This document shows positions 48,452 through 62,409 of a stretch of 64,000 bases of DNA, piece by piece. Under the pieces are notes generated by a model. It made no database searches. It was not told the DNA's origin and was given only the letters and a program-made list of their open reading frames with translations. The DNA comes from a virus. Taxonomy: Duplodnaviria > Heunggongvirae > Uroviricota > Caudoviricetes. A program made the position numbers and the translations under genes. The stretch lies in IMG/VR virus record IMGVR_UViG_3300028361_000018. One strand, 5' to 3'. Numbering within the stretch: the first letter of the stretch is position 1; every line of letters starts with the position of its first letter.

Positions 48452-48480
48452 TTGACAGGCAAGTGCACAGGCCATATACT
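48452..48480 (+). promoter_or_regulatory. sigma70-like promoter TTGACA-N17-TATACT driving the tRNA cluster
   Basis: TTGACA 48452-48457, TATACT 48475-48480. Followed by a conserved 45-nt leader that is also found at 58368. Confidence 0.5.
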
Positions 48481-48547
48481 TAGTGCATAGGTTAGCAAAA
48501 CAGCTAACACGCTCTTTAACAATAGAAAGTAAAAACAAAAGTTTATC

Positions 48548-48633
48548 GGAAGGTGCCGCTAATTGGATGGCAACTGGATTTGAACTCCAGGGTATTTGCA
48601 AAACAGGTAGGGGTTCGATTCCTCCACCTTCCT
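48548..48633 (+). tRNA. tRNA-Ser (anticodon UGA), type II
   Basis: Acceptor GGAAGGT/ACCTTCC. Anticodon arm CTGGA-TTTGAAC-TCCAG. Long variable arm. T-arm GGGG-TTCGATT-CCTC. CCA not encoded (ends TCA). Confidence 0.65.
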
Positions 48634-48844
48634 CAAACTTTAAAGTAAAACACACTAAGACGTGGATGTCACTCCAGACGTGGGGAAGACAGGTTCGAGA
48701 CCTGTAATGGTAAATCCTGGTTTCGAAACCAGGTAGTGTGTTTTACTTTAAAGTTTATAGTAAAGCATACTAAGGCATGACAGACACTTTTAACGTGTTT
48801 GACTAGGTCCTACACCCAATAGTATGCTTTACTATAAAGTTTAT

Positions 48845-48935
48845 AGTAGATTGGCTGAGTGATCTAAGGCGTTCCGCTGCTAACGGAAAAGTTCACATTG
48901 TGGGCTCGAAGGTTTGAATCCTTCATCTACTGCCA
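48845..48935 (+). tRNA. tRNA-Ser (anticodon GCU), type II
   Basis: Acceptor AGTAGAT/ATCTACT + G + CCA. Anticodon arm TTCCG-CTGCTAA-CGGAA. Long variable arm. T-arm GAAGG-TTTGAAT-CCTTC. Confidence 0.7.
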
Positions 48936-49149
48936 TTTAGGAGGACAACCCCCGGGCTCTCCGCTATTTTAATGTAAATCAAGGAAATATAATGTATCCA
49001 TATCCAGGATTTTACGTAATGAGAACGAACTGCGGAAAGTGATGTCTAGGACAATAATAGACCGTGGAGCAGCAGAAAGTTGGAAAAGTTTTTGTGAAGA
49101 CTCAGAATCCAAACAAGAGTTTTTTATTGTAGAAATAAAGTAAAAGTTT

Positions 49150-49917
49150 ATGCCTCAGGTACAGGGTACGGATTGGTCTCCAAAACCAGTAAGCGGGGTT
49201 CGCAAAATGATAAATAGTCGTATGAACTATAACAAACATTATGCGACATTGATTGAACGAGCAAAAACACGAGTATTTGACGGTTACACTGAGAAACATC
49301 ATATTGTTCCTAGATGCTTAGGCGGCACAGATGACAGAGAGAATATAGTAGCATTAACTCCTGAAGAGCACTATGTAGCACATCAGTTACTAGTTAAGAT
49401 GCACCCAAAGGAACATAAGTTGGTATACGCTGCTAATATGATGACTGTTAGTAGTAGAAAGAATTTGCGTAGTAATAAACAGTACGGATGGATAAAGAAA
49501 CGTTACATTAGCGAGTGTAGAAAACGAAAAGGAAGTGAAAACTCGTCGTACGGGAAGCCCTGGTATTATAATCCTGAGACTTTAGAAAACGGGAAGTTTC
49601 TTAAAGAAAATGTTCCAATAGGCTGGATTAAAGGGAGAAAATCAACACAGAAGCATTGTACTGGTTGTCTGGTTAAAATTACTTCACAGCATGCAAAATA
49701 TTGTCAAGGATGCCTTACTAAATTACAGCTAAGTCGTGTAACAAAAAACGAATTAGAATTTTTGAAAAGAAAAGACAAGTTTATTAGCCTAATAGAAGAA
49801 GGTTATGCCTTCTCGACAGCACTCGACAAAATGGGATATGGCAATTCATATTCGTTAAAGTCCGGGGTAGGCAAGTGGGCTAAAGAAGTTTTATATGCGT
49901 CGGGTACTGGGTACTGA
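49150..49917 (+). CDS. HNH homing endonuclease
   Basis: 255 aa. TEKHHIVPRCLGGTDDRENIVALTPEEHYVAHQLL HNH core. Flanked by ~30-bp imperfect direct repeats (49160-49192 and 49900-49932). Confidence 0.65.
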   Translation: MPQVQGTDWSPKPVSGVRKMINSRMNYNKHYATLIERAKTRVFDGYTEKHHIVPRCLGGTDDRENIVALTPEEHYVAHQLLVKMHPKEHKLVYAANMMTVSSRKNLRSNKQYGWIKKRYISECRKRKGSENSSYGKPWYYNPETLENGKFLKENVPIGWIKGRKSTQKHCTGCLVKITSQHAKYCQGCLTKLQLSRVTKNELEFLKRKDKFISLIEEGYAFSTALDKMGYGNSYSLKSGVGKWAKEVLYASGTGY

Positions 49918-49983
49918 TTGGTCTCCAAAACCGATCTTGTGAGGATCGTAACCTCGTCGACGCGCCAATTTAGAGGAAGTGTT

Positions 49984-50157
49984 ATGATAGCGTGTGTATG
50001 CAGAAACATTAAAGACAGCAGCTACGACACGCTAGAGGCTCTTAAACTGCGTATTATGCAGGATGACGCTGTATGCGGTAAGTGTCAAGTTTATTATAAA
50101 CGAACAGAAAGAGCAGTAAATAGTACAGCCAACTACGGGGTGTCTAGATTAGGCTAG
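49984..50157 (+). CDS. small Cys-containing hypothetical (57 aa)
   Basis: Track ORF 49918-50157. ATG at 49984. Confidence 0.3.
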   Translation: MIACVCRNIKDSSYDTLEALKLRIMQDDAVCGKCQVYYKRTERAVNSTANYGVSRLG

Positions 50158-50227
50158 CATAGTGAGGACCTAGTCCAATAACTGAGCAGGGCGGTGCTGC
50201 TACACTCCACATATTGTAAATGAGGAG

Positions 50228-50256
50228 TTGACAGATAGTAAATACATTGCTATTGT
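50228..50256 (+). promoter_or_regulatory. sigma70-like promoter TTGACA-N17-TATTGT
   Basis: TTGACA 50228-50233, TATTGT 50251-50256. Confidence 0.4.
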
Positions 50257-50282
50257 AGTTAAACATTAAAGTAAAGAGGATA

Positions 50283-50750
50283 ATGAACATGAAGGTCAAA
50301 CTGTTAGCAGGCGTACTTGCAATTGCTCTATCTGCTCCTTTAGTTGCAGGACAGCGAGTTAACGCACAAGTAGTTCATCACTACCGAGATGTAGCAGTAC
50401 AGACACCTCATGTGAGCCAGCAGTGTGGTGTCGAACAGGTTCCGGTCTACGGTACAGTTCGACAGCAGGGCAGCACATCAGACACTCTGATAGGTGCAGT
50501 AATAGGTGCAGCAGTAGGAAGGCAGTTTGGCGGAGGAAGTGGACGTGATGCAGCCACTGCGGCAGGTGCATTGATTGGTGGCGCTAGAGGACACTCAGGT
50601 TCTACCTCCACAGTAGTAGTAGGCTATAGACAGGAGCAACGTTGTTTTAACAGTACCACGTACTCTACGTCGTATCAGCAGCAATATGATTACAGTATTG
50701 TGAAATTTGTTGAGAACGGACGAGAAGTAACTTTACAGTATCAGAAATAA
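50283..50750 (+). CDS. secreted glycine-zipper protein (17-kDa-antigen/Slp-like)
   Basis: 155 aa. Signal peptide MNMKVKLLAGVLAIALSAPLVAG. GAVIGAAVGRQFGGGSGRDAATAAGALIGGARG glycine-zipper segment. Confidence 0.45.
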   Translation: MNMKVKLLAGVLAIALSAPLVAGQRVNAQVVHHYRDVAVQTPHVSQQCGVEQVPVYGTVRQQGSTSDTLIGAVIGAAVGRQFGGGSGRDAATAAGALIGGARGHSGSTSTVVVGYRQEQRCFNSTTYSTSYQQQYDYSIVKFVENGREVTLQYQK

Positions 50751-50816
50751 GGGATTGACAAACACAACACAGATGTTATTATAGTTATACATTAAAGCAA
50801 GATAAGTGTTATTTGC

Positions 50817-50889
50817 TCCTAAGTAGCTCAGTTGGTAGAGCGTCGGTCTGTTAAACCGAATGTCGCTGGATCGTGCCCGGCCTTAGGAG
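50817..50889 (+). tRNA. tRNA-Asn (anticodon GUU)
   Basis: Acceptor TCCTAAG/CTTAGGA, discriminator G (as in E. coli tRNA-Asn, which starts UCCUCUG). D-arm GCTC-AGTTGGTA-GAGC. Anticodon arm TCGGT-CTGTTAA-ACCGA. CCA not encoded. Confidence 0.7.
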
Positions 50890-50912
50890 CAAATAACATT
50901 TTTAGAATTTAT

Positions 50913-50995
50913 TCCTCGGTAGACAAAATGGTAAAGTCGCCGGACTGTTAATCCGGTTCCGCAAGGAGCTGTAGGTTCGAAGCCTACCCGGGGAG
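50913..50995 (+). tRNA. type II tRNA with apparent anticodon GUU (Tyr-like body; isotype uncertain)
   Basis: Acceptor TCCTCGG/CCGGGGA. Anticodon arm CCGGA-CTGTTAA-TCCGG. 14-nt variable arm TTCCGCAAGGAGCT. T-arm GTAGG-TTCGAAG-CCTAC. The loop differs from E. coli tRNA-Tyr (CUGUAAA) by one base. Confidence 0.5.
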
Positions 50996-51030
50996 CATTT
51001 GAGTCTTAACTTAGTGTTAAGACTCGAACT

Positions 51031-51684
51031 TTGTATAAATACAGTATGAACTATACTATATACAAAGTTACAAATAAGATGAACGGCAAGATCTATATCG
51101 GATCTCATAAGACCCCTAATCTTAATGACGGCTATATGGGCTCAGGTAAGTATTTGAAGCGAGCATTAGAAAAACACGGAATTGATAATTTTGTGAAAGA
51201 AATATTGTTTATTTTTGATACTCCTGAGCTAATGTACGCAAAAGAAGCAGAATTAGTAAATGAAGAATTTTTGACAGAAGCTAACACTTATAATTTAAAA
51301 GTAGGTGGATTTGGTGGATGGGACTATGTTAACAAAAACAATTCTTCGCATTCAAAAGAACATATGAATAAAATGTGTAAAGCTAGAATATCAAAGTATC
51401 CAAACGGTACTTTTTACGGCAGAAGTCATACAGAAGAGACCAACAAACGCATTAGCACTTCCTTAGCAGCATTGGCCCTTAGAACTTTTTTAGGAAAAAA
51501 ACATACTGACGCAACTAAACAACTAATTAGTGAAAAGGCTAAAATTCATAGTAAAGGAAAACGAAATTCGCAGTTTGGTACGATGTGGATTACAAACGAA
51601 GTAGAATCAAAGAAGATTAAGAAGACTGAACTTATACCAGAAGGGTACAGAAGAGGCCGAGTAGTAAACAAGACGTTACAGTAA
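51031..51684 (+). CDS. GIY-YIG homing endonuclease (Seg/I-TevI-like)
   Basis: 217 aa. YTIYKVTNKMNGKIYIGSHKT...YMGSG...NLKVGGFGG GIY-YIG core with a C-terminal NUMOD-like basic region. Paralogous to the 54414 and 55360 ORFs. Confidence 0.7.
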   Translation: MYKYSMNYTIYKVTNKMNGKIYIGSHKTPNLNDGYMGSGKYLKRALEKHGIDNFVKEILFIFDTPELMYAKEAELVNEEFLTEANTYNLKVGGFGGWDYVNKNNSSHSKEHMNKMCKARISKYPNGTFYGRSHTEETNKRISTSLAALALRTFLGKKHTDATKQLISEKAKIHSKGKRNSQFGTMWITNEVESKKIKKTELIPEGYRRGRVVNKTLQ

Positions 51685-51893
51685 AACATTTAGGACATAG
51701 GTTCACAACAGACGTAGAGGAACAAGTTTGAGTCCTATAATGGTAGATCCTGGTCCGTCCTCGGTCGCCAGCACGTTCCACCAATTTATGCAGGGTAAGT
51801 CCAGTGCTTTCTGGTATGAATCCATAAGAGGTGTTAGGGGTTATCCACAGCATCCACCAGGGGTTAGAATCCCCAACCCTGCTCCATTTTTAT

Positions 51894-51969
51894 TGCCTCG
51901 TAGCTCAATTGGCAGAGCGCCTGACTTTGACTCAGGAGGTTGTAGGATCATACCCTACCGGGGCTGCCA
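51894..51969 (+). tRNA. tRNA-Gln (anticodon UUG)
   Basis: Acceptor TGCCTCG/CGGGGCT with U1 (as in E. coli tRNA-Gln) and discriminator G + CCA. Anticodon arm CCTGA-CTTTGAC-TCAGG. T-arm GTAGG-ATCATAC-CCTAC. Confidence 0.65.
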
Positions 51970-51978
51970 AACAAACAG

Positions 51979-52006
51979 TTGACAAAACTGTAAAAGACTG
52001 TATACT
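51979..52006 (+). promoter_or_regulatory. sigma70-like promoter TTGACA-N16-TATACT
   Basis: TTGACA 51979-51984, TATACT 52001-52006. Confidence 0.4.
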
Positions 52007-52037
52007 GTGTATAACAGTTAGATAAAAGGTAAGCGGT

Positions 52038-52490
52038 ATGATAGTACAAGTTCCAGGACATCGCTCCTACAAGTGGTTTTTAAAAGAAGAGAACAACAGT
52101 TGTGCTATGATAAACTTTGCTTACACTACCAACTTTCCGTTGGTTACACAAGTAATTGATCGAGAGTACGAAGAACGAGTTAGGACTAGAGGAAACAATG
52201 CATCGTATCATTGGCCTGAGGTCATACGCACGTTGCCAAAACCTAACAATTCAGTACCTGCGTTTGAAAGTTCGCCGCACGTTTGGCACTTTAAGGACAC
52301 TGAAACTGATATAGAATTTTTATTGCTTAGTGACGGACTTCGCAAGAATCATTACAAAGGCTCAAAGATTGAAGTAATGTGCGACACACACAGGCATCAT
52401 AAACAGGACGCAATGTTAGCAGCAGCGTACAGCAGATTGTTAGAATTTGTTGAACAGTGCCATAACAATGCGCAACAGAATAACTCCTAG
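52038..52490 (+). CDS. hypothetical protein (150 aa)
   Basis: ORF track. Confidence 0.4.
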   Translation: MIVQVPGHRSYKWFLKEENNSCAMINFAYTTNFPLVTQVIDREYEERVRTRGNNASYHWPEVIRTLPKPNNSVPAFESSPHVWHFKDTETDIEFLLLSDGLRKNHYKGSKIEVMCDTHRHHKQDAMLAAAYSRLLEFVEQCHNNAQQNNS

Positions 52491-52533
52491 TCGATTAGTG
52501 GCTAAATCACTTGGCTTATTTTTAAAACTATAC

Positions 52534-52609
52534 GCTCTTATCGTCTAAAGGTTAGGACACTGGACTTTCACTCCAGTAATGTTGGGTTCGAGTCCCACTA
52601 AGAGCACCA
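52534..52609 (+). tRNA. tRNA-Glu (anticodon UUC)
   Basis: Acceptor GCTCTTA/TAAGAGC + A + CCA. Anticodon arm CTGGA-CTTTCAC-TCCAG. T-arm TTGGG-TTCGAGT-CCCAC. Confidence 0.7.
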
Positions 52610-52611
52610 AC

Positions 52612-53469
52612 TTAATCGTATAGAACTTTATAGTCGGTAACAAAATAGAAATCAGTAACATAATCAAATACAAATTTTAGATCCTTTTTATACAGTATAT
52701 CAATAGGTTCCGACACTGACTGTAATTTTAAGTCAACAACATGGGTGTAATAACCTTTGATCTCAACAAGACGCCCGTTGACACGAAAATCTGGATAATA
52801 CTTTCTGTGCTTACCGTTGTAATAATATTTCCAAGATTCTTTATTACGTTCAATGCAGATTTGGTGATCAACACAAAAAATATAGTAACACAGTTCGTAT
52901 GTAGATGCTAAATAAAAACCTTTATAATATCCACCTTTACTATTTCCGGATCCTTTACGTTCGCCACCAGAATACGGTATAAAGCAGCTAAATGAACAGT
53001 ATTTTTTACTTTCTTCACAAGGATAGGCATAAAATTTATTTTGGCAAGTTTCAGAAGAGCAAGTTTTATACGTTCCTTTACGTTGAAAAGTCGGCCTATT
53101 AGTAACAAATCCGGAAGGATTATTTTTAGCATACAACGAAAGTTTCTTCTTGGTGCTCTCCTTTACTTTCCGTTTAGTATTTGTAAATGTCGTTGAACAA
53201 GATTTTGAACAAAAAGTGCTGTGCCGTTTTTCAAATGGAAGAGCTAGGGTGCACGACTTACAAAACTTATCAGCTGTTTCCTTAAACTGATTAATTGTGT
53301 TTTGTTTTAGTTTACTTGAAATTTGTGGAGCCACAAATTTCATTCGCTGCTGATGTGCAACTCTTTGAGCAGCATCATGAGAAAGTCGATGATGTCCAGC
53401 TATGCCTTTGGCGGATAACTGTTTGCCGCATATGATACAAGAACATATAGGTGATTTATAAATATGCAA
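52612..53469 (-). CDS. Cys-rich putative endonuclease (PD-(D/E)XK-like core; possible homing endonuclease)
   Basis: 285 aa, the only convincing minus-strand gene in the tRNA island. N-terminal CxxC...HH zinc-finger-like segments. C-terminal YYPDFRVNGRLVEIKG resembles a PD...E.K nuclease motif. Confidence 0.45.
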   Translation of the reverse strand: MHIYKSPICSCIICGKQLSAKGIAGHHRLSHDAAQRVAHQQRMKFVAPQISSKLKQNTINQFKETADKFCKSCTLALPFEKRHSTFCSKSCSTTFTNTKRKVKESTKKKLSLYAKNNPSGFVTNRPTFQRKGTYKTCSSETCQNKFYAYPCEESKKYCSFSCFIPYSGGERKGSGNSKGGYYKGFYLASTYELCYYIFCVDHQICIERNKESWKYYYNGKHRKYYPDFRVNGRLVEIKGYYTHVVDLKLQSVSEPIDILYKKDLKFVFDYVTDFYFVTDYKVLYD

Positions 53470-53574
53470 GTTAGTAACTCCGTTTTTATCTAATAGTGCG
53501 GTTAATTCACAATGTATTTATGTAAAGTCACCCAAGAGCAAGGGGATCGATACCCCTCTAGGAGACCATTTTAT

Positions 53575-53650
53575 AGTACCATAGTATAGCGGCTCTGTAC
53601 ACTCGGCTGATAACCGAGAGGTCCTGGATCGACACCAGGTGGTACTACCA
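53575..53650 (+). tRNA. tRNA-Ile (anticodon GAU)
   Basis: Acceptor AGTACCA/TGGTACT + A + CCA. Anticodon arm CTCGG-CTGATAA-CCGAG. T-arm CCTGG-ATCGACA-CCAGG. Confidence 0.7.
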
Positions 53651-53747
53651 AGCAATGGGGTGTTAGCTAACGACCAATGCGCTCGGTATAATTTCAGAGC
53701 CGAGAACGGGTAACTACGCAGTCCCGTACATTCCACCAAACAAGTAG

Positions 53748-53775
53748 TTGACACAGCGCTTATTGATGCTATACT
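53748..53775 (+). promoter_or_regulatory. sigma70-like promoter TTGACA-N16-TATACT
   Basis: TTGACA 53748-53753, TATACT 53770-53775. Confidence 0.4.
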
Positions 53776-53818
53776 TTGTACATAGTAAACAAACACACGT
53801 TAATAAAGAGTAAGAAAC

Positions 53819-54097
53819 ATGGTACGCTTACCAGAACAGTATATCGCAACCAAGCATAGAGGCTACTTTTTCAACACTGAGAACGAGACACTGTACTCGA
53901 TCAAGATAGACGGCATACTAAAGCCTATGAAGTTGCTACGGCCTAATCATTTTAACTACATGAAAGAACCGTTCTTTCGTATTAGTGTCAAAGGAATACG
54001 AAAGTGTTATCCGTTAACAAGTTTGAAAGAGTTAGCAGAGAAAGAAAAAGCGAATCCCAGGATTGATGTTATTCCTGAGATGGCAACAACATTTTAA
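53819..54097 (+). CDS. hypothetical protein (92 aa)
   Basis: ORF track. Confidence 0.35.
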   Translation: MVRLPEQYIATKHRGYFFNTENETLYSIKIDGILKPMKLLRPNHFNYMKEPFFRISVKGIRKCYPLTSLKELAEKEKANPRIDVIPEMATTF

Positions 54098-54289
54098 AGT
54101 TTAATGCGCCTGTATACCCTCGGTCTACGAAATCGTTGAAAGGTTAGCAGGATACAGGTAGGTTCGAATCTCGCCATTTTAAATGGCAGATCAGCACCCT
54201 TTTAAGGTGAAGACAGGGTATCGATACCCCTATGTGATACCAAACATAACGCAGACGATAAGTTGTAAGCCGTGTGAATAAAGATTTAT

Positions 54290-54365
54290 CTCTCTGTAGT
54301 GTAGTCTAGTAACACCCTACGTTTGAGACGTAGAATCTGGGGTTCAAAATCTCACAGAGAGACCA
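54290..54365 (+). tRNA. type I tRNA with apparent anticodon UGA (Ser-reading anticodon on a short-variable-arm body; isotype uncertain)
   Basis: Acceptor CTCTCTG/CAGAGAG + A + CCA. D-arm GTGT-AGTCTAGTA-ACAC. Anticodon arm CTACG-TTTGAGA-CGTAG. T-arm TGGGG-TTCAAAA-TCTCA (two G-U pairs). Confidence 0.5.
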
Positions 54366-54413
54366 GTTTTAGGAATAGTTCAATAAATATCGAACTTGTA
54401 TAAATAGTAGTAT

Positions 54414-55064
54414 ATGCTATACACACTATACAAGATAACGAATATTATTAACAATAAGATATACGTAGGAGTCCATAAGACTCACGATATCAATGATGAC
54501 TATATGGGATCAGGTAAGATCCTAAAGCTATCAATAAAGAAAAATGGAATTGAAAACTTCACTAAAGAAATATTAGAAGTTTACGACAACCCAGAAGATA
54601 TGTTCTCTGCTGAAGCAAAGATAGTTAACGAAGAATTTATTAAAGATAAAGATAACTATAATTTGAAAGAAGGTGGTCAAGGTGGGTTTGATTGGATTAA
54701 CGAAAATGTTGATCGTAGTCTTGTAGACTATAAACCGCATATTGGTTCAAAAGTTTTTGTTGATAAATGGAAAAATGATCCTGTCTTCCGCGCAGCGCAA
54801 CTGTCACGTATGAAGGAGTTCAGTAGACTTGGAGTGGAAGCTCATAAGCTATTATACCCAGAAGGAGTATGGAAAGGGAAATTCCATAATGAAGAATCAA
54901 AAAAGAAAATAGGTAAAGCAAATAGTATTCACCAAACTGGTAAAGGTAATTCTCAGTTTGGTACAAGATGGATTCATAATTTAGAATTAAAGAAATCTAA
55001 AAAAGTTAATAAAGAAGAACCTCTACCTGAAGGATGGTTAGAAGGTAGAAAAATAAAGTTTTAG
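54414..55064 (+). CDS. GIY-YIG homing endonuclease
   Basis: 216 aa. LYTLYKITNIINNKIYVGVHKT...YMGSG...NLKEGGQGG. Paralog of the 51031 ORF. Confidence 0.7.
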   Translation: MLYTLYKITNIINNKIYVGVHKTHDINDDYMGSGKILKLSIKKNGIENFTKEILEVYDNPEDMFSAEAKIVNEEFIKDKDNYNLKEGGQGGFDWINENVDRSLVDYKPHIGSKVFVDKWKNDPVFRAAQLSRMKEFSRLGVEAHKLLYPEGVWKGKFHNEESKKKIGKANSIHQTGKGNSQFGTRWIHNLELKKSKKVNKEEPLPEGWLEGRKIKF

Positions 55065-55125
55065 GGGGATCTGTATGGGACAGACCTTGCAATGCGAGAG
55101 AAAGAGATCGTTACTCTTATCCTCT

Positions 55126-55337
55126 ACCCGAGGAGCAAAACGACATAGTTGATTTGCCCGTGCATTGTGCCAGTGAACTATAATGCGAACTTAGCTCCTA
55201 TCGAGAGCGCCAAATTTATTAGCTTGGCTAGTAACAGAAAGAATGCTTAATCGGGGCTGCGAACCTTTACTCTGCCCGAGGAGCGGAACGACATAGTTCA
55301 TCCGCCCATGCGTTGTGCTAATAACCTATTATGCGGA
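55126..55337. repeat. two ~70-bp imperfect direct repeats
   Basis: CTCTACCCGAGGAGCAAAACGACATAGTTGATTTGCCCGTGCATTGTGCC... (55126-55195) and CTCTGCCCGAGGAGCGGAACGACATAGTTCATCCGCCCATGCGTTGTGCT... (55268-55337). Confidence 0.6.
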
Positions 55338-55359
55338 CATGGTGTGAAGGGTAACACGA

Positions 55360-56016
55360 GTGTCTTCATTGCTAAATAATTGTATGAAACATTATACAGT
55401 ATACAAGACAACAAATATAATTAACAGAAAATATTACATCGGTACACACGTTACTAATAACCCAACTGATTCATATTTAGGTTCAGGAACACGCTTAGCT
55501 AAATCTATCAAAAAGTACGGAAAAGAGAGCTTTTATAAAGAAATTCTGTTCGACTGCACTAGTGAAGAAGAAATGTTTAGAAAAGAAAACGAGCTAGTTA
55601 ATGAAACGGTCTTGAAAGACAAGCAGTGCCTTAACTTAATTGTTGGTGGGAAAGGTGGATTTTCCTACATTAATAAAAGCGGTATAGCTAAATTTAAAGG
55701 AAGGAAACATACGCAAGCGTCTATTAAGAAGATGCTAGCAACAAAAAGAGATAACGGAACTTGGTGTCCAACAGACGAGTGCCGAGAAGAAAGAGCCGAA
55801 GCAAATCGTATAAGAGCAAAAAACCCTGCTAGAAACGCAGCAATATCTAAGACAGTGTCGGGAAGAATAAAAACCGAAGAACATAAAAAAAAGATTGCCG
55901 AAAGTCTGAGAGGCAAGAAACAGAACAGAGTACAATGTCCTTACTGTAAAAGAGTAGGCGGCGAACAAGCATTTAAGCGTTATCATTTCGATAACTGTAA
56001 AAATTTGCGGATCTAG
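55360..56016 (+). CDS. GIY-YIG homing endonuclease
   Basis: 218 aa. YTVYKTTNIINRKYYIGTHVT...YLGSG...NLIVGGKGG. C-terminal basic/Cys region. Its stop overlaps the 5' end of tRNA-Gly. Confidence 0.7.
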   Translation: MSSLLNNCMKHYTVYKTTNIINRKYYIGTHVTNNPTDSYLGSGTRLAKSIKKYGKESFYKEILFDCTSEEEMFRKENELVNETVLKDKQCLNLIVGGKGGFSYINKSGIAKFKGRKHTQASIKKMLATKRDNGTWCPTDECREERAEANRIRAKNPARNAAISKTVSGRIKTEEHKKKIAESLRGKKQNRVQCPYCKRVGGEQAFKRYHFDNCKNLRI

Positions 56017-56082
56017 CTCAATTGGTAGAGCACTGTCCTTCCAAGTCAGATGTTAGGGGTTCAAGTCCCCTGATCCGCTCCA
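56007..56082 (+). tRNA. tRNA-Gly (anticodon UCC)
   Basis: Acceptor GCGGATC/GATCCGC + T + CCA. D-arm GCTC-AATTGGTA-GAGC. Anticodon arm CTGTC-CTTCCAA-GTCAG (one T-T mismatch). T-arm AGGGG-TTCAAGT-CCCCT. Confidence 0.65.
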
Positions 56083-56096
56083 AATAAGAGGTAATT

Positions 56097-56366
56097 ATGA
56101 AGTCAATACCAATGAACGTCAAGCAAGGCGACCGCGTAAAAGCACGATTTAACCCTTACACTGATGAGAATAGTAATGACTGGAGCCCGTCTCTATCAGG
56201 AGATATAGAACAAGTTGAGTACAACGCTAAAAACGAAGTTGTAGCTATTGTAGTTGATTCTTGCAGGTACTCTGCCGAGCATTACCAAAGGTCCGCTGGA
56301 CAACAGAATGAAATTCATTATTTTGATGTTGGTCATGGGTTAGTTTTTGAATTTACAGTAGTATGA
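56097..56366 (+). CDS. hypothetical protein (89 aa)
   Basis: ORF track. Confidence 0.35.
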   Translation: MKSIPMNVKQGDRVKARFNPYTDENSNDWSPSLSGDIEQVEYNAKNEVVAIVVDSCRYSAEHYQRSAGQQNEIHYFDVGHGLVFEFTVV

Positions 56367-56410
56367 GCGGTTCGAATCCCTGTGTCCGCACCAAACAAAA
56401 GGAAAACGTA

Positions 56411-56626
56411 ATGAGCACGATTAAAGATATGGTAATTGACAGAAAGCAAGTTCAGTTTAAGTTTTACCGCAAGGGCGAACTCTTTTACGAAACTGAATGC
56501 GGCTTTATTTTTCCAGTGCCAATCTCCGACACTGGCGACGGACAGTTTAACCGTTCGGATAAGGCAATGATGTTCATGCGTTACATCCGCAAAGAACTAG
56601 CAGTACGAGAACAAGCTGTAAGCTAA
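56411..56626 (+). CDS. hypothetical protein (71 aa)
   Basis: Track ORF 56363-56626. ATG at 56411 with AAGGAAAACG RBS. The upstream in-frame part overlaps a tRNA 3'-fragment-like sequence. Confidence 0.35.
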   Translation: MSTIKDMVIDRKQVQFKFYRKGELFYETECGFIFPVPISDTGDGQFNRSDKAMMFMRYIRKELAVREQAVS

Positions 56627-56671
56627 TACATTACCCTCTGTAGCTCGGTGGATAGAGCTACATAATTATTT

Positions 56672-56746
56672 GGCCCTATGGTGAAATGGATATCATAAGA
56701 GTCTTCGAAACTCCTGTTCCTTGTTCGAATCAAGGTAGGGTCGCCA
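56672..56746 (+). tRNA. tRNA-Arg (anticodon UCG)
   Basis: Acceptor GGCCCTA/TAGGGTC (one G-U) + G + CCA. Anticodon arm AGAGT-CTTCGAA-ACTCC. T-arm CCTTG-TTCGAAT-CAAGG. Confidence 0.55.
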
Positions 56747-56815: not shown

Positions 56816-57748
56816 ATGAACAATTACCAAAGTAATACCGCTTGGACAACACAACACCAAAATGTGTATGAAACTAACGCAATTAAACTATTACAATTCT
56901 CACAAGGTACAGGCACGCCGGCTGTAATTATTCCACCACAAGCAGGCCATCACAGCAACATAGCAGATTATGCACCTAACCAAAGTTTAGTACAAAGTGC
57001 TGCTAAAAACTACACAGGCAGTGTCTACACAATAGAGTGGAAGAGCTGTACATATACTCGCCGCAACGAAGGCATAGAGGACTTGCTATCACAGCTTAAT
57101 CAATGTGTATCGCACGTCGGCGGAACAGCAACATTAGTAGGGTTGTGTCAAGGCGGCTGGCTAGCCACAATCTACGCAGCATTACATCCAAATCAAGTAT
57201 CGTCTCTAGTAATAGCAGGAGCTCCTATTGATACTAAAGTAGGTAACAGTGTAATACATCGCGCTACGAAGACGCCTTTAGTCTTATATAAAGCTATTGT
57301 AATGATGAGCGGAGGTCTTATGCTAGGCCAAACTATGTTAGCAGCTTGGAAGAGCAGCAATCTAAGTAAACACTATTTTGAACGATATGTCTATCCAGAC
57401 GACGATGCTCGACGCTTTTACAAGTGGTACGATCATACACAGGATCTAGCAGGTAAATGGTACCTATGGGCTGTAGAACAGTTGTTTAAGAAGAACTTAC
57501 TAGGTAAGAACGAACTCACAATAGCCGGTGTCAAAGTGGACCTTACTGTGCTAAACAGCTTAAAAGGTGTACACATTGTTACAGGAGTGCGTGACGACAT
57601 TACGCCAAGTGAACAATCTCTTGCTCTGCAACGCTACACCCGCGCACAAACCTACTTAGTTGACGCAGGGCACATAGGAGTGTTCATGAGCCACCGAGGA
57701 ATATGTGACGTTTGGAATGGCTTGTTCGCTAGGTTGGATGCAGCTTAG
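56816..57748 (+). CDS. alpha/beta-hydrolase-fold protein with GxCxGG box (PHA synthase / depolymerase-like)
   Basis: 310 aa. VGLCQGGWLATIYAALHP nucleophile-elbow with Cys in place of Ser, as in PhaC-type enzymes. Later conserved D and H candidates (GVRDDI, DAGHIGVF). Confidence 0.45.
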   Translation: MNNYQSNTAWTTQHQNVYETNAIKLLQFSQGTGTPAVIIPPQAGHHSNIADYAPNQSLVQSAAKNYTGSVYTIEWKSCTYTRRNEGIEDLLSQLNQCVSHVGGTATLVGLCQGGWLATIYAALHPNQVSSLVIAGAPIDTKVGNSVIHRATKTPLVLYKAIVMMSGGLMLGQTMLAAWKSSNLSKHYFERYVYPDDDARRFYKWYDHTQDLAGKWYLWAVEQLFKKNLLGKNELTIAGVKVDLTVLNSLKGVHIVTGVRDDITPSEQSLALQRYTRAQTYLVDAGHIGVFMSHRGICDVWNGLFARLDAA

Positions 57749-57758
57749 TAAATACTAG

Positions 57759-57787
57759 TTGACAGAATATCTAATCTCTCTTATACT
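57759..57787 (+). promoter_or_regulatory. sigma70-like promoter TTGACA-N17-TATACT
   Basis: TTGACA 57759-57764, TATACT 57782-57787. Confidence 0.45.
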
Positions 57788-57846
57788 GTTAGAACATTAG
57801 AAATACGCAGAGTATCTAAGATTGAAAGCAAAGTTTGGAGAGTAAA

Positions 57847-58335: not shown

Positions 58336-58342
58336 ACAGTGG

Positions 58343-58371
58343 TTGACAGCAACAACGTTAGACACTATAAT
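58343..58371 (+). promoter_or_regulatory. sigma70-like promoter TTGACA-N17-TATAAT followed by a conserved 45-nt leader
   Basis: TTGACA 58343-58348, TATAAT 58366-58371. The downstream TTAGTACATAGGTTAGCAAAACGTTAACACGTTCTTTAACAATAG matches 48479-48526. Confidence 0.5.
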
Positions 58372-58667
58372 TAGTACATAGGTTAGCAAAACGTTAACAC
58401 GTTCTTTAACAATAGTAACTGGGCAGTATAATGTCCTTAGACTAAGCATAGCAATATGCCAGAATTGGTAAGATACCGTTAGTTAAGTTAGACAACCAAA
58501 CGGTGTACCCATATTAAGAACCTTGTCTAATACACGAAAGCTGAAATGCGCCGGATTGCTTTGACTACGTACTAAAATGTAGTAGCACTAGATGGTAAAA
58601 GTGTAGGTGACTTGGCAGTGGAATAGTAACTGTCTAGCTAATTTTGTAAATAATTAATAGGTGACGT

Positions 58668-58880
58668 ATGTTAGTAGTAGCATTACATGAGTACGGCGAC
58701 TTTGATATGCCAATACTGAATTCAGTTTGGACTTCTTCAGAATTTGACAGCTTAACACAAACAGGGCTTTCATCAGACACCTTTGATTACTCAGATATCA
58801 ACAATGCCATTAAGCAGCTTAGAAAGCTAGGCTTTAAAAATACTAAAATTGCTATTGTCACAGTAGGCGGAGGATTCTAA
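58668..58880 (+). CDS. hypothetical protein (70 aa)
   Basis: ORF track. Confidence 0.35.
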   Translation: MLVVALHEYGDFDMPILNSVWTSSEFDSLTQTGLSSDTFDYSDINNAIKQLRKLGFKNTKIAIVTVGGGF

Positions 58881-58882
58881 CT

Positions 58883-59158
58883 ATGCACACAGAAATTACC
58901 ACATACGCAAGCGAACAAGAAATACTCGAATTAATCAACAGCTACTTTAATCTCGACGAGGATTCGTTGGTTGCTCTCGAAGAACTAGGTAACCAAGACT
59001 GGTGCATAACTGTTGAACCAGCTGACAAATACGACATGGACGCTTTATTAGAGGTCAAAAACGGTAACGCTCAATTTAGTACCAACGCGATGCTAAATCA
59101 GCTTTGCAGCTCAGGGGTACTGTTGTCGGGTAAATACGTTATAGACTGTACTTGGTAA
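58883..59158 (+). CDS. hypothetical protein (91 aa)
   Basis: ORF track. Confidence 0.35.
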   Translation: MHTEITTYASEQEILELINSYFNLDEDSLVALEELGNQDWCITVEPADKYDMDALLEVKNGNAQFSTNAMLNQLCSSGVLLSGKYVIDCTW

Positions 59159-59173
59159 TATTTGGAGAACAAC

Positions 59174-59488
59174 ATGAAAAAACTAATTCAAGCAGCACTA
59201 ATTACAGTAATGTTCGCAGGCTCATCTGCTGCGCTAGCATCAAAAGTAGTAACTGTGCCCACTAAGATGGTGTGTACTGTATACTTAGAAATTGAACAGC
59301 ACCTGCGGGATAAGGGACAATCGCCTATCCTTGAGGGTAATTCCAGCATGGCTGATCGAGCAGGAACTACATCTCTGTTCTACATGGATAATGACGGCAA
59401 TTATACATTGGTAATTCGAAGTGATGTTAACTCCCTTGGCTGTATCATTGACTTTGGAAAAATGTCAAAATACGGCATGGAAAGCTAA
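59174..59488 (+). CDS. secreted hypothetical protein
   Basis: Track ORF 59162-59488. ATG 59174. Signal peptide MKKLIQAALITVMFAGSSAALA. Confidence 0.4.
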   Translation: MKKLIQAALITVMFAGSSAALASKVVTVPTKMVCTVYLEIEQHLRDKGQSPILEGNSSMADRAGTTSLFYMDNDGNYTLVIRSDVNSLGCIIDFGKMSKYGMES

Positions 59489-59511
59489 TCTAAATATACG
59501 AGTAGGTTGTT

Positions 59512-59805
59512 ATGACTGACAAATACACGCTGCCTGTGATGTACGATAAGATTTCGTCTAGAGACAAGCGAGTAGTTCGAGAACAGTATATTAAACAGCA
59601 GGGCGGTGCCTGTATGTTTTGCGAACGACAGCTGACCGAAGAGCCGCCTAAGTCAGTAACTTCTAAGAAAGTAAACTGGAAACTGTTCCCGCCATTCTTC
59701 CTAAAACATCCAATTCACTTACAACACTGTCATGACTCAGGGCTAACAGAAGGTGCAGTACACGCACTCTGCAATGCTGTGATGTGGCAATTTCACGGTC
59801 GCTAA
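59512..59805 (+). CDS. hypothetical protein (97 aa), Cys/His-rich
   Basis: ORF track. CMFCERQ ... HCHDSG ... HALCNAVMWQFHG. Confidence 0.35.
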   Translation: MTDKYTLPVMYDKISSRDKRVVREQYIKQQGGACMFCERQLTEEPPKSVTSKKVNWKLFPPFFLKHPIHLQHCHDSGLTEGAVHALCNAVMWQFHGR

Positions 59806-59829
59806 CCAAACTAACAAGGAGTAAATTTT

Positions 59830-60726
59830 ATGGGATGCTGGAATAAAACATGTTCATTGACAAACCTTCCAATCTACCACGGCGACGCAGTGTACGTCTT
59901 TGCATTAGAGAAGAAGGCAACATACGATCAGTGCTATGCTACAGGGCACTATGCACCGGTTCTGATACCGTTCGAAGGTGTTTATAATGACTACGGCGGA
60001 AGCGATGAGAATAGCGGAGTGGGGCTAACGTATGTGCTAGGCGCAGTTAGGGAAAACTTAATAGAAATGGAAATAGAAGTGGGAGAGAACCAGCGCCACG
60101 ACGTTGCTGTTACTCGCAGCTCTTTTGGAGAGGAACAGTTTTTTGAAAGTGTTCGCGAACAGCGTTTAATTATTGAAAATAAGTTTGGCAAAGAGTCCTA
60201 TATTGACTTTGCAATGATGCGCAAAGACTGCGTGGACGCAATTCTTAATAAGTGGCAAATTGAAGACTGCAAATATAACCATGAGTCTAATGAGGTAAAC
60301 TACTTTAAATACGGTTACAATGACCTTGTTGAGGAAGCAACTGATTACATCCTGGCAATAAAAGACCTTGTTGAAAAGAATGACGAAATAGGATTCATGC
60401 TTATAAACAACATGGCCGAATACCCAGTGTGCAGCAAGCTGGCGAAGACGCTAAACTTTAACGAGCACCGATTTAGTGGAATGTTACGAGGCCAAGGAAT
60501 TGTTCGTGCACTAGTTGAAGCAGGTGAGATCGAACAAGCAGAAGCGTTCATCAAAGAATACCTCAAAGGAGCTATGCTTAACCTATTCTTTGATGAAACG
60601 CGCAAGCAATGGCTACCCGGAGGACACGAAGGTAGCCAAGGACAAGAATACGAGCCTTACGAATTGCTACTACAAGTGACTCAAGAAACTATCAACAAAA
60701 GAAAGACAGAAATGGAAGAATGGTAG
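59830..60726 (+). CDS. hypothetical protein (298 aa)
   Basis: ORF track. Confidence 0.4.
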   Translation: MGCWNKTCSLTNLPIYHGDAVYVFALEKKATYDQCYATGHYAPVLIPFEGVYNDYGGSDENSGVGLTYVLGAVRENLIEMEIEVGENQRHDVAVTRSSFGEEQFFESVREQRLIIENKFGKESYIDFAMMRKDCVDAILNKWQIEDCKYNHESNEVNYFKYGYNDLVEEATDYILAIKDLVEKNDEIGFMLINNMAEYPVCSKLAKTLNFNEHRFSGMLRGQGIVRALVEAGEIEQAEAFIKEYLKGAMLNLFFDETRKQWLPGGHEGSQGQEYEPYELLLQVTQETINKRKTEMEEW

Positions 60727-60754
60727 TTGACAAACACTACAAAGGTGCTATACT
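60726..60754 (+). promoter_or_regulatory. sigma70-like promoter TTGACA-N17-TATACT driving an ORF-free structured region
   Basis: TTGACA 60726-60731, TATACT 60749-60754. Confidence 0.45.
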
Positions 60755-60770
60755 AATAAAGTAAAGATTT

Positions 60771-61428
60771 ACACTGTGCTGGAATAGGTATACAGGGGTG
60801 CGGAATAAGCCAATATGGATAGGCGGTGAAATATTAATAATACACCGTTTTGCGCTCAAGACTTGTATAACTGAGTCAGGCGAGAACTACCCGTTTCATA
60901 ACAGCGCAACGTAATTGAAACATCCGGGTTCGATCCCCGGCAGTGTAAATAAATAATTCGGTCTGCTCATTACAATTAAAATGAGCACACGGTACTCTTA
61001 GCGCAAGCTAAGGGGCGCAGTATAACTAAACAGTAGAGCATACTGTGAAGAATCCTTATTCGGGCGAAGAAGCGACGGCTTCTAGGATCGGAGGTACACA
61101 AGTTGAACGCCAAGTGTTACGTAGTGATCTTTGGTATTGCTTGAACGCCACAGCTGGGACCTGCTAGGCAACCGAACTAGCTACTGCGTTAATGTCCTTT
61201 GCCTACGGGTAGAGGACATCTTAAAGCACTTTGACACAGAGTGCTTTAAGATGTGACAGATGCGTAGACTGATACGCAGTGCTTGAGCTTAGCGGCCAAG
61301 CATGAGACGAGGCGCTGACCCTGGGCAGATTTGAACAAACAGGGGAACCGATATTGGTCGCGAACTGTGTCGGGTTGCTATGCTGGAGATCAGTACCAGT
61401 TGTCACACTACTAATTCACGAGGTTAAT
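60771..61428 (+). ncRNA. large structured non-coding region (tRNA-like 3' module + multiple long hairpins); identity unknown
   Basis: No ORF >61 aa on either strand for ~650 nt, downstream of a promoter. TACACTG (60771) pairs with CAGTGTA just after a canonical T-arm CCGGG-TTCGATC-CCCGG (~60925-60946). Further perfect hairpins include ACATCTTAAAGCACT-TTGACACAG-AGTGCTTTAAGATGT (~61218-61256). Confidence 0.4.
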
Positions 61429-61782
61429 ATGATAACTAATTACTTGTTTCTAAATCGTGAGCTGCTTGATGATGTTTATTCCGCTCATGGGTCAACCCTT
61501 GTTGTTGTACAAAATCGAGGAGATGCTGTAAACTTCTTTAATGAATTGCTGATGTGCCATAAAATGGACACCGAGTCAGCTATGTGCTCTCACTCTGGGT
61601 TGTGGATATCATGCAAGGTCAGCAAGACCACAGTAAGGTCGATACGTGATCAATCATTTCGTTCGTCAATTCGCGGAGCTCAGTTCACACAGGTATTTAC
61701 AGTGGGCAAAATGTACGAAGAAGACAACGAACTAATAGTAGCTAGTCTTCTGTGGCAGCCAAGGCAATCGCCAGAAGAATAG
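61429..61782 (+). CDS. hypothetical protein
   Basis: Track ORF 61354-61782. ATG 61429 after GAGGT RBS. Confidence 0.35.
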   Translation: MITNYLFLNRELLDDVYSAHGSTLVVVQNRGDAVNFFNELLMCHKMDTESAMCSHSGLWISCKVSKTTVRSIRDQSFRSSIRGAQFTQVFTVGKMYEEDNELIVASLLWQPRQSPEE

Positions 61783-61786
61783 AGGT

Positions 61787-61814
61787 TGACACAGACAGTA
61801 AACATAAGTATACT
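61787..61814 (+). promoter_or_regulatory. sigma70-like promoter TTGACA-N16-TATACT
   Basis: TTGACA 61787-61792, TATACT 61809-61814. Confidence 0.4.
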
Positions 61815-61841
61815 GTGTACTGAGATAAGGGAGTAAGACAA

Positions 61842-62030
61842 ATGAGATTTATTGCAAGATCTAAGTCCGACCCAAATATCAGCAACGGCGGAATGGAATA
61901 TGATTCGGAGTCATCTGCACAATTACATGCAGACACAATGAACAAGTTAATTGAACGCTATCCGGATAAGCCATGGAACACAGACTTTTGGAAGACTAAA
62001 CCAGAGGCTTGGGTAGTTTACAAAAAGTAA
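61842..62030 (+). CDS. hypothetical protein (62 aa)
   Basis: ORF track. Confidence 0.35.
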   Translation: MRFIARSKSDPNISNGGMEYDSESSAQLHADTMNKLIERYPDKPWNTDFWKTKPEAWVVYKK

Positions 62031-62033
62031 TAT

Positions 62034-62107
62034 GGCGGGTTGGCCGAGCGACTAGGCAGTGGACTGCAACTCTACGCACACAGGTTTGAATCCTGTACCC
62101 GCTTCCA
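62034..62107 (+). tRNA. tRNA-Cys (anticodon GCA)
   Basis: Acceptor GGCGGGT/ACCCGCT (G1-U72) + T + CCA. Anticodon arm GTGGA-CTGCAAC-TCTAC. T-arm ACAGG-TTTGAAT-CCTGT. Confidence 0.6.
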
Positions 62108-62409
62108 AAATTTAGAATAGAGACGAAAAAAGAAAGAAATGCCGGAAAGCAGGTTCGATTCCTGTGGTGGTCAAGATGGCTGCTGAGTTGGACTCTATAA
62201 AAAATTCCGGAAGTCCTAGGTAATTGTCTCGAGGCTTTTACCTAGGGCGGTACTAATTATGCAGGCGGAGAGCGAACGGCGGTCCTGAGTCTAAACTATG
62301 AGTATACCGGTAAATGCTCGTAGGAATAAGACTTAACAAAGATTATAGATCTTTGTGAATAGGTTAGAATCCTGTCGTCTGCTCCTAATTCAACACAAAA
62401 GGTAATAAA

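Follow-up and report, generated by a model that had tools for sequence, protein, structure and literature searches.

A phage tRNA array probably colonised by free-standing homing endonuclease genes of three nuclease superfamilies

Genes of the tRNA array

The DNA considered here, referred to as the window, is a stretch of 64,000 nucleotides (nt) from IMG/VR virus record IMGVR_UViG_3300028361_000018 and belongs to an uncultured, large, jumbo-like phage (Caudoviricetes). It contains an array of tRNA genes, the island, in which nuclease genes are interspersed: three Seg-like GIY-YIG genes (GIY1, GIY2 and GIY3), one HNH gene, and a minus-strand gene for a protein with zinc fingers and a PD-(D/E)XK nuclease domain (Table 1). 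The tRNA genes were called by ARAGORN and then scored against Rfam, with the tRNA gathering score as the threshold. ARAGORN finds 12, the first starting at 48548 and the last ending at 62107, each of them on the plus strand; ten of the 12 pass the threshold, at 47-69 bits. The remaining two are an atypical tRNA-Ser(UGA) with a long variable arm, which matches the tRNA-Sec model only, and a tRNA-Trp(CCA), called copy B below, which has no Rfam match even at E<=10.

The initial annotation, made from the letters of the sequence, had named 11 of these tRNAs, and ARAGORN calls all of them at the same places and with the same anticodons; the twelfth, tRNA-Trp(CCA) at 49897-49967, had been missed. 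Its assignments of the nuclease genes also stand. The three GIY-YIG genes are paralogs (phmmer, pairwise E 1e-26 to 1e-50) with matches to phrog_314, the gene at 49150 matches the HNH family phrog_655, and the Cys-rich minus-strand protein has the invariant catalytic residues of PD-(D/E)XK nucleases and a profile match to T7 endonuclease I. The statement that every gap between tRNAs of more than 400 bp holds such a gene turned out to be false. The Gln-Glu gap (564 bp) has open reading frame (ORF) 52038-52490 and no nuclease, the gap between tRNA-Ile and the UGA tRNA (639 bp) has ORF 53819-54097 and again no nuclease, the Gly-Arg gap (589 bp) has two small ORFs only, and the Arg-Cys gap (5.3 kb) has about 12 ORFs with no nuclease among them.

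The island was compared with other loci and contigs, labelled L054, L059, L223, L224, L225, L231 and so on, and the useful relatives were reached via two anchors, ORF150 and a Gly-zipper protein. Megablast of the island against GenBank phages returned short tRNA-Gly matches only, and there is therefore no close cultured relative. L059 is syntenic with the window, with ORF150, ORF92, ORF89 and ORF87 as backbone genes conserved in the same order, so that several of the genes in the nuclease-free gaps belong to a shared backbone; it has 29 tRNAs and, as the only one of the endonuclease genes, an ortholog of GIY3. L054 has 21 tRNAs and three endonuclease genes in 4.8 kb; two of the latter are of the HNH type and the third is Endonuclease VII-like. 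The split tRNA-Glu and the duplicated half of tRNA-Trp, described in the next two sections, had been overlooked initially.

A tRNA-Glu gene split by a nuclease gene and a second tRNA-Glu

The clearest insertion is in a resident tRNA-Glu(UUC), here called type A. In L054, which is 91% identical in this region, the sequence aligns to window positions 51777-52517 and then straight to 53528-53738, and a tRNA-Glu spans the junction. When the two window pieces, 52484-52517 and 53528-53568, are joined, the product is 100% identical to that tRNA-Glu. L223 and L224 have the same intact tRNA-Glu and the same junction (52517|53528). In the window, an insert of 1010 bp therefore separates nt 34 from nt 35 of the resident tRNA-Glu, and it has caused neither target duplication nor deletion. 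The insert holds an intact tRNA-Glu(UUC) of a second type, B, which resembles the tRNA-Glu of L059 at 10531-10606, and the antisense PD-(D/E)XK gene. The nuclease gene converges on this passenger tRNA, its stop being 2 nt from the tRNA 3' end. The split type-A gene is most likely dead, its function presumably being covered by the passenger with the same anticodon.

The minus-strand nuclease alone has no Pfam or PHROG match, and its nature became evident from its family. A large protein collection contains 121 or more homologs, and an alignment of 35 of these sequences has invariant E192, P226-D227-F228 and E236-I237-K238, the PD-(D/E)XK signature, preceded by repeated zinc-finger motifs of the form C-x2-C ... 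C-S-x2-C. Against the Protein Data Bank (PDB), the family profile finds T7 endonuclease I (1m0d, E 9.4e-6; 3cae, 5.9e-5; 1fzr, 2.6e-4), and the Pfam family Phage_endo_I (PF05367) matches 15 of the 35 homologs, with a best E of 8.6e-7. An AlphaFold2 model is confident in the nuclease domain, for which it predicts a restriction-endonuclease-like fold. Other homologs carry NUMOD3, C2H2, FCS or YacG fingers, and one has a homing-endonuclease-associated repeat. The family is large, with 1468 clusters at E<=1e-30 and 3549 at E<=1e-10. Its only occurrences among GenBank phages are in the Lak megaphages and in a single uncultured phage, none of which has it annotated.

The family is strongly associated with tRNA genes. 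At 77 of the 80 best IMG/VR loci encoding relatives, tRNAs lie within 3 kb. In about 38 of these 80 loci the directly adjacent gene is tRNA-Glu(UUC), five of them with the convergent overlapping geometry seen in the window, and other sub-lineages adjoin Ser-UGA, Asp or Ile tRNAs; L060 and L063 repeat the nuclease/tRNA pattern. An antisense nuclease, which had been thought unusual, is in fact recurrent in the family (L063, L065, L083, L096, L117, L140 and L225), and the window itself has a second antisense endonuclease gene, of the HNH type, at 36536-37261. In L225, whose nuclease is 61% identical to that of the window, even the nesting is the same: a tRNA-Glu 5' part, a diverged passenger, the antisense nuclease and a 3' part follow one another, and the acceptor halves are still complementary via two compensatory changes.

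A clean interruption between nt 34 and 35 could also mean that the 1010 bp are a self-splicing group I intron, with an endonuclease ORF, at the classical 34/35 anticodon site, in which case tRNA-Glu would be functional after splicing. The last letter of the 5' exon is U and that of the insert is G, the acceptor halves in L225 have remained complementary, and a genuine group I intron does split a phage tRNA at 34/35 elsewhere: in L140 (1381-1621, minus strand) a tRNA-Asn(GUU) is interrupted there by a 183-nt insert that matches the Rfam group I intron family (Intron_gpI) at 44.8 bits, E 3e-10, just under the gathering score. However, the same tool that found the L140 intron gives no group I or group II match on either strand of 52400-53700 at E<=10, and a group I intron at tRNA-Glu was rejected for want of a ribozyme match at this level. 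The ORF takes up all but 152 nt of the insert, and half of this remainder, 76 nt, is a canonical tRNA-Glu, whose normal processing would sever any intron RNA. The endonuclease ORF is antisense, and the anticodon stem is not preserved in L225, so that a spliced product there could not be a tRNA. We consider an intron very improbable.

A further possibility, weighed in the same way, is that a chance ORF or artefacts of prediction account for the minus-strand gene and for some of the odd tRNAs, and that the split tRNA is an assembly chimera. Two assemblies do end in or next to the island, an ENA contig of this phage at 51899 and the closest IMG/VR relative, L004, at 58395, and tRNA-Trp is called by ARAGORN alone. 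Against this, positions 52469-56630 are 100% identical in independent assemblies from three samples, the ORF has at least 121 homologs with invariant catalytic residues in a family of the size given above, and the nesting recurs in L225, which comes from another sample. An artefact is thus hardly credible. Three other assemblies hold the same phage and are 100% identical to the window from 51899 onward, one of them breaking at that position. The breaks at 51899 and 58395 suggest short-read assemblies interrupted by repeated tRNA and endonuclease sequences. Since the L004 contig begins at 58395, the island is not covered by it.

An HNH gene and a broken tRNA-Trp

The HNH gene (motif HHIVPRCLGGTDDRENIVALTPEEHYVAH) belongs to phrog_655, an HNH homing endonuclease family whose match begins at residue 20 of the ORF; its Pfam HNH score is just below the cut-off of 21.4 bits. 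A partial tRNA-Trp, copy A, supplies the first 19 codons of the ORF, and DNA homology to an HNH gene of L054 starts at 49198. The true start is likely the ATG at 49207. The L054 gene, 60% identical, lies between other tRNAs (Pro and Val).

The gene is flanked by a 52-nt direct repeat, D6, in which copy A is 81% identical to 49881-49932. The tRNA part of copy A (49152-49187) is cut off after the anticodon loop. Relative L231, with 78-98% nucleotide identity to the window, has a single intact tRNA-Trp and lacks the HNH gene, and the leader and first 36 nt of this tRNA are identical to copy A. Copy B differs from the L231 tRNA-Trp in the D region, the T arm and the acceptor; it has a degenerate D arm and the T loop ATCGTAA but is otherwise a complete tRNA-Trp. 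Since copy A is the 5' half of the L231 gene and copy B is different, the HNH gene together with a foreign tRNA-Trp has replaced the resident 3' half. Copy A is the left footprint of the insertion, and copy B the passenger tRNA that arrived with the gene. In both footprint cases, then, a passenger tRNA replaces a broken tRNA gene with the same anticodon.

Two further HNH homing endonuclease genes, paralogs of the one in the island, are located elsewhere in the window. One, at 7571-8626, separates the ribonucleotide reductase genes nrdA and nrdB; the other, a minus-strand gene at 36536-37261, is antisense to its neighbours. A small Cys-rich ORF (C-x-C ... C-x2-C; 49984-50157) directly follows tRNA-Trp and is conserved in L231; it may resemble BFD-like [2Fe-2S] ferredoxins.

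The GIY-YIG genes and their neighbouring tRNAs

The annotation of phrog_314, to which GIY1, GIY2 and GIY3 belong, is 'homing endonuclease', and the best solved relative of the three proteins is the catalytic domain of I-TevI. In a Pfam scan GIY1 passes as GIY-YIG, and NUMOD3 is not detected in GIY2. All three proteins have Y-T-x-Y-K ... K-x-Y-[IV]-G aligned with GIYQIK...KVYVG of I-TevI. With R27, E75 and N90 of I-TevI as the reference residues of the catalytic core, the Asn is aligned (YNL vs YNI), and invariant Glu residues are found within 1-2 columns of E75. No invariant Arg occupies the R27 position, where an H-x-T motif typical of the SegE-like subfamily is kept instead. Thus of the core GIY...YIG...R...E...N by which these genes were initially to be recognised, the GIY, YIG and Asn elements align and the Arg is not evident. 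Homologs of GIY1 are present in 987 GenBank phage records, annotated segD, segE or SegB-like.

The relatives of these genes have tRNAs within 3 kb at 77 of 79 IMG/VR loci. As a rule they are preceded, at a distance of 40-75 nt, by a tRNA on the same strand, and in many cases their stop overlaps the tRNA that follows. The 10-nt overlap between the end of GIY3 (56016) and the start of tRNA-Gly (56007), which had been pointed out from the start, is therefore the norm of the family.

The three genes differ in their distribution. GIY1 and GIY2 are missing at the corresponding places in L059, L054 and L231. L231 has neither GIY1 nor the long-arm GUU tRNA that precedes it within 240 nt after tRNA-Asn. 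The interval between tRNA-Ile and tRNA-Gly is 95 nt in L054 vs 2.36 kb in the window, where it holds ORF92, the UGA tRNA, GIY2, repeats and GIY3; GIY2 is inside the 2.27-kb stretch missing from L054. The GIY3 ortholog of L059, 65% identical, is in the same position and likewise overlaps tRNA-Gly(UCC). GIY3 is an old resident of its site, abutting tRNA-Gly. The lineage-specific additions are GIY1 and GIY2, and an odd tRNA lies shortly upstream of each.

The odd tRNA upstream of GIY1 ends 35 nt before the gene and combines a GUU anticodon and a long variable arm with an Asn-like acceptor stem (U1-A72, C2-G71, C3-G70) and G73, as judged from alignments. The one upstream of GIY2, at a distance of 49 nt, has a short arm and a Pro-like body (C1-G72, A73, G37; alignment with nine phage tRNA-Pro genes, and nearest-neighbour comparison). 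Its anticodon loop is UUUGAGA vs UUUGGGA in tRNA-Pro, and the anticodon UGA reads a Ser codon. Possible readings are a dead tRNA-Pro and a missense tRNA.

Several further features were seen around these genes. A 13-bp hairpin (50998-51028) lies between the long-arm GUU tRNA and the start of GIY1. The 295-nt spacer between GIY2 and GIY3 contains a 69-nt direct repeat of 80% identity (55122-55190 and 55270-55338), whose fold is unexceptional. The closest relatives of GIY2, at L146-L148, have a normal tRNA-Pro(UGG) at the same upstream position. Unrelated tRNA arrays of phages repeatedly contain tRNA-Asn(GUU) genes of 81-89 nt with a long variable arm, G73 and the Asn-like acceptor stem (Table 1), several of them directly upstream of a Seg-like GIY-YIG gene. 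Long-arm tRNAs in bacteria are normally limited to Leu, Ser, Tyr and Sec, and our literature search found no description of a long-arm tRNA-Asn(GUU) in phage arrays.

Probable colonisation of the array

The comparisons with relatives lacking the endonuclease genes, which the initial annotation had recommended for defining insertion sites, have done so at tRNA-Glu (52517|53528) and at tRNA-Trp, and have also established that GIY1 and GIY2 are missing in relatives. The insertion polymorphism is resolved to the single base, the inserts contain passenger tRNAs, and the association of the families with tRNAs is strong. A further polymorphism is reciprocal. In L231 a 202-amino-acid EndoI-like gene (143-751; YTPDF...VEVKGY), without zinc fingers, is directly 5' of tRNA-Ser(GCU), which its stop overlaps, and the same site is empty in the window (48848|48851). 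The proposal that homing endonuclease genes are interleaved with the tRNAs is borne out by homology and by the empty sites in L054, L223, L224 and L231. We conclude, with a probability of roughly 0.8 and from sequence comparison, that the phage tRNA array has been colonised by at least five free-standing homing endonuclease genes of three nuclease superfamilies.

The mechanism would probably be that of homing. During co-infection, each enzyme would cut a conserved tRNA-gene sequence in a relative without its gene, and recombinational repair would copy the endonuclease gene with the adjacent tRNA gene into the break. The passenger tRNAs would resist cleavage by the enzyme and would compensate for the broken tRNA gene.

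The nucleases could instead be domesticated phage functions rather than mobile selfish genes, either amplifying tRNA genes against tRNA-cleaving defences or acting as junction resolvases, with the tRNA rearrangements due to ordinary recombination between similar tRNA genes. SegB-driven amplification of tRNA-Tyr is known to defeat the Septu defence (PMC13096335). In the present case, the distant relative L059 retains its GIY3 ortholog at the corresponding site, the PD-(D/E)XK domain has a relative in the T7 junction resolvase, and both synteny breakpoints between the window and L054 are exactly at tRNA 3' ends, directly after CCACCA. However, at four or more sites phages of 78-98% identity differ in whether they have the genes, and the proteins contain the DNA-binding modules that homing enzymes typically have (NUMOD3, zinc fingers, an HNH-associated repeat). 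Tandem amplification is not seen in the window, where there is one partial duplicate, the 52-nt repeat flanking the HNH gene. Domestication as an explanation of the whole is unlikely. The domestication and homing readings are compatible, neither excluding the other.

A number of observations weigh against colonisation by homing genes or narrow its reach. The catalytic Arg of the GIY-YIG core is not evident in the alignment. GIY3 is found at one site across phages of about 50% protein identity, which fits a domesticated or immobile gene equally well. The relatives of the HNH gene in IMG/VR adjoin tRNAs at none of five loci, and a tRNA association of that lineage is not supported. The flanking halves in L225 lack a preserved anticodon stem, so the junctions are not identical in the window and L225. 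At six other loci with convergent tRNA-Glu and nuclease genes, brute-force joining, which recovers the window case, found no split halves; members of the family are therefore not usually nested in a tRNA gene. The usual state is a free tRNA-Glu/nuclease pair, which in the window and L225 is nested inside another tRNA-Glu. The comparison contigs are mostly short metagenome fragments.

A more specific proposal, made tentatively, is that the zinc-finger PD-(D/E)XK family is specialised on tRNA genes and, like the HNH gene, spreads as a cassette of an endonuclease and a tRNA with the same anticodon. Such a cassette may destroy the resident tRNA gene in the anticodon arm while supplying an uncut copy, which would amount to gene replacement and not simple insertion. 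Repeated rounds of replacement could lead to non-canonical tRNAs, such as those with A54 T loops, the long-arm tRNA-Asn, the tRNA-Pro body with a UGA anticodon, and the tRNA-Trp lacking a proper D arm.

That homing endonucleases occur in phage tRNA clusters is as such established biology (PMC2330249; PMC13096335), and the density in the window, initially regarded as unusual, is matched in L054; the association of Seg genes with tRNAs has also been published as widespread. What looks new is an uncharacterised tRNA-associated PD-(D/E)XK family and the pairing of a nuclease gene with a replacement tRNA. In the literature searched, neither a tRNA-array-specific zinc-finger PD-(D/E)XK family related to T7 endonuclease I is described, nor an endonuclease with a same-anticodon replacement tRNA nested in the anticodon arm of a resident tRNA. 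Phage tRNA genes have now been linked to escape from tRNA-cutting host defences, and SegB, the T4/T6 enzyme, is known to reshape tRNA clusters. The locus suggests that nuclease families beyond SegB also do so, breaking a resident tRNA and substituting their own copy. If true, this would account for the mosaic make-up of phage tRNA arrays and their variation between near-identical phages, for the presence of odd tRNAs that standard predictors mis-assign, and for the breaking of assemblies in these arrays. The enzymes would then be candidate site-specific nucleases with tRNA-gene targets.

Other features of the region

Table 1. Features of the tRNA array and related tRNAs (window coordinates unless a comparison locus is named)
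Feature	Position	Strand	Evidence
tRNA-Ser(UGA), long variable arm, atypical	48548..48634	+	ARAGORN; Rfam 31 bits, tRNA-Sec model only
tRNA-Ser(GCU)	48845..48935	+	ARAGORN; Rfam 50.2 bits
Copy A: 16-nt leader and first 36 nt of resident tRNA-Trp	49136..49187	+	repeat; L231 comparison
HNH homing endonuclease ORF	49150..49917	+	phrog_655 E 1e-50 (match from residue 20); Pfam HNH 20.4 bits
tRNA-Trp(CCA), copy B, 71 nt	49897..49967	+	ARAGORN only; overlaps HNH ORF end
tRNA-Asn(GUU), resident, also in L231	50817..50890	+	ARAGORN; Rfam 62.3 bits
Long-variable-arm tRNA, GUU anticodon, 84 nt	50913..50996	+	ARAGORN; Rfam 53.2 bits
GIY1, Seg-like GIY-YIG gene with NUMOD3	51031..51684	+	phrog_314 E 4.5e-47; Pfam GIY-YIG 23.7 bits, NUMOD3 28.8 bits
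tRNA-Gln(UUG), resident, syntenic with L054	51894..51969	+	ARAGORN; Rfam
5' half (nt 1-34) of resident tRNA-Glu(UUC), type A	52484..52517	+	100% identical to both L054 tRNA-Glu copies
1010-bp insert, splitting tRNA-Glu between nt 34 and 35	52518..53527	.	blastn/alignment vs L054, L223, L224
tRNA-Glu(UUC), type B, passenger, intact	52534..52609	+	ARAGORN; Rfam 60.7 bits
Endonuclease gene: N-terminal FCS/YacG-like zinc fingers and C-terminal PD-(D/E)XK domain	52612..53469	-	
3' half (nt 35-75) of resident tRNA-Glu(UUC), type A	53528..53568	+	100% identical to L054 3505-3545
tRNA-Ile(GAU), resident	53575..53650	+	ARAGORN; Rfam; L054 comparison
Short-arm tRNA, UGA anticodon, 76 nt	54290..54365	+	ARAGORN; Rfam 47 bits
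GIY2, Seg-like GIY-YIG gene	54414..55064	+	phrog_314 E 1.4e-42
GIY3, Seg-like GIY-YIG gene with NUMOD3	55360..56016	+	phrog_314 E 1.1e-39; NUMOD3 27.6 bits
tRNA-Gly(UCC)	56007..56082	+	ARAGORN; Rfam 68.8 bits
tRNA-Arg(UCG)	56672..56746	+	ARAGORN; Rfam
tRNA-Cys(GCA), 5.3 kb of ordinary genes from rest of array	62034..62107	+	ARAGORN; Rfam
Sigma-70-like promoters	48452, 50228, 50755, 51979, 53748, 57759, 58343, 60727, 61786	+	
Long-arm tRNA-Asn(GUU) elsewhere	L180 2888-2974; L202/L204 2843-2931; L190 1361-1446		
Long-arm tRNA-Asn(GUU) elsewhere	L192 2481-2565; L207 228-313; L015 1224-1304		

T loops that begin with A and not T (ATCG...) are found in four of the 12 window tRNAs (those at 49897, 50817, 51894 and 53575), as well as in the split tRNA-Glu, and in five of 30 tRNAs of close relatives; their frequency in four other phage tRNA sets is 3.6-6.9%. 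They could reflect escape from cleavage, since T4 SegB recognises T-psi-C sequence (PMC2330249), or could be a lineage trait. The repeated isoacceptors of L054 do not stem from recent duplication, a source that was rejected because the pairs are only about 65-85% identical; the sole exception is its two tRNA-Glu copies, which are identical. About 100 nt upstream of tRNA-Gln (51784-51880) are 100% identical in the window and L054, next to ORF150 at about 91%, and their fold is unexceptional (z -1.6).

Between the two tRNA-Ser genes, 48641-48745 and 48746-48844 have very stable folds with long terminal stems (z -4.3 and -6.9). None of 200 shuffles folds as well, and neither element matches an Rfam family; they could represent small stable RNAs or tRNAs that have decayed. 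The first element has T-arm-like repeats at 51717 and 62144. The nine plus-strand sigma-70-like promoters have a perfect TTGACA (10-12 of 12 matches) and precede tRNA groups and backbone ORFs, not endonuclease genes. The T4 late-promoter-like motif TATAAATA, found upstream of GIY1, GIY2 and the antisense HNH gene, was rejected: the window has six copies vs 5.4 expected, and hence no enrichment.

An alternative oxidase gene (47600-48451; Pfam AOX E 1e-82) is directly upstream of the array, and relatives of 53-66% identity are carried by many IMG/VR viral contigs. Inside the island, 56816-57748 encodes an alpha/beta hydrolase like PHB depolymerase (DUF3141/PHB_depo_C). Its closest IMG/VR homolog, 64% identical, is on L001, together with ParB-like and replication-initiator-like genes and with no shared gene order. 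As an anchor for finding relatives the hydrolase was discarded, as it led to this non-syntenic, plasmid-like contig without tRNAs; anchors on ORF 46352-47179 and on the alternative oxidase yielded nothing, or the 53-66% relatives only. Elsewhere in the window, 9789-11207 and 23529-29594 hold five paralogous genes (phrog_17056, phrog_28193), four of them in tandem.

Comparison with known systems

The closest precedent is SegB of phage T4, a free-standing GIY-YIG homing endonuclease encoded in the T4 tRNA cluster, which recognises the T-psi-C stem-loop sequence and co-converts flanking tRNA genes (PMC2330249, 2008). The association of segB with tRNAs is widespread (p = 1e-50), and the gene can amplify tRNA genes (PMC13096335, 2026). 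HNH genes accompany tRNA arrays in bacteria too (PMC8421152). As with SegB, the window has Seg-like GIY-YIG genes amid phage tRNAs that are variably present in close relatives, flanking tRNA genes travel along, and the association with tRNAs is strong (77 of 79 loci). Unlike T4, the window has three paralogs and two other nuclease families in about 7 kb, and the tandem tRNA-plus-endonuclease units of SegB-type segmental amplification are missing from it.

For the PD-(D/E)XK gene, two enzymes invite comparison. I-Ssp6803I is a PD-(D/E)XK homing endonuclease encoded in a group I intron of a cyanobacterial tRNA-fMet gene, and in both cases a nuclease of this superfamily is tied to an interruption of a tRNA anticodon loop. 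There is no detectable sequence similarity, I-Ssp6803I being absent from the PDB matches at E<=1, and the window gene, unlike that of I-Ssp6803I, is free-standing, antisense and zinc-fingered, with a passenger tRNA and no surrounding intron. I-Ssp6803I is listed among the homing families (PMC6083498). The other enzyme, T7 endonuclease I (the gene 3 junction resolvase; 1m0d, 1fzr; PF05367), shares the catalytic core E...PDF...E-x-K. The window protein differs from it by about 165 extra N-terminal residues with FCS/YacG-like zinc fingers, its gene is variably present and sits in tRNA arrays, and alone it is below Pfam significance. T7 endonuclease I itself is structure-specific, not site-specific.

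A gene inside a gene is also known from Aeromonas phage Aeh1, where the free-standing mobE splits nrdA, and the two protein pieces reassemble and stay functional. In Aeh1 as in the window, a free-standing endonuclease gene inside another gene has left the latter in two pieces. Unlike nrdA, however, the split gene of the window encodes a tRNA and is most likely dead, its role presumably being covered by the passenger tRNA of the same anticodon.

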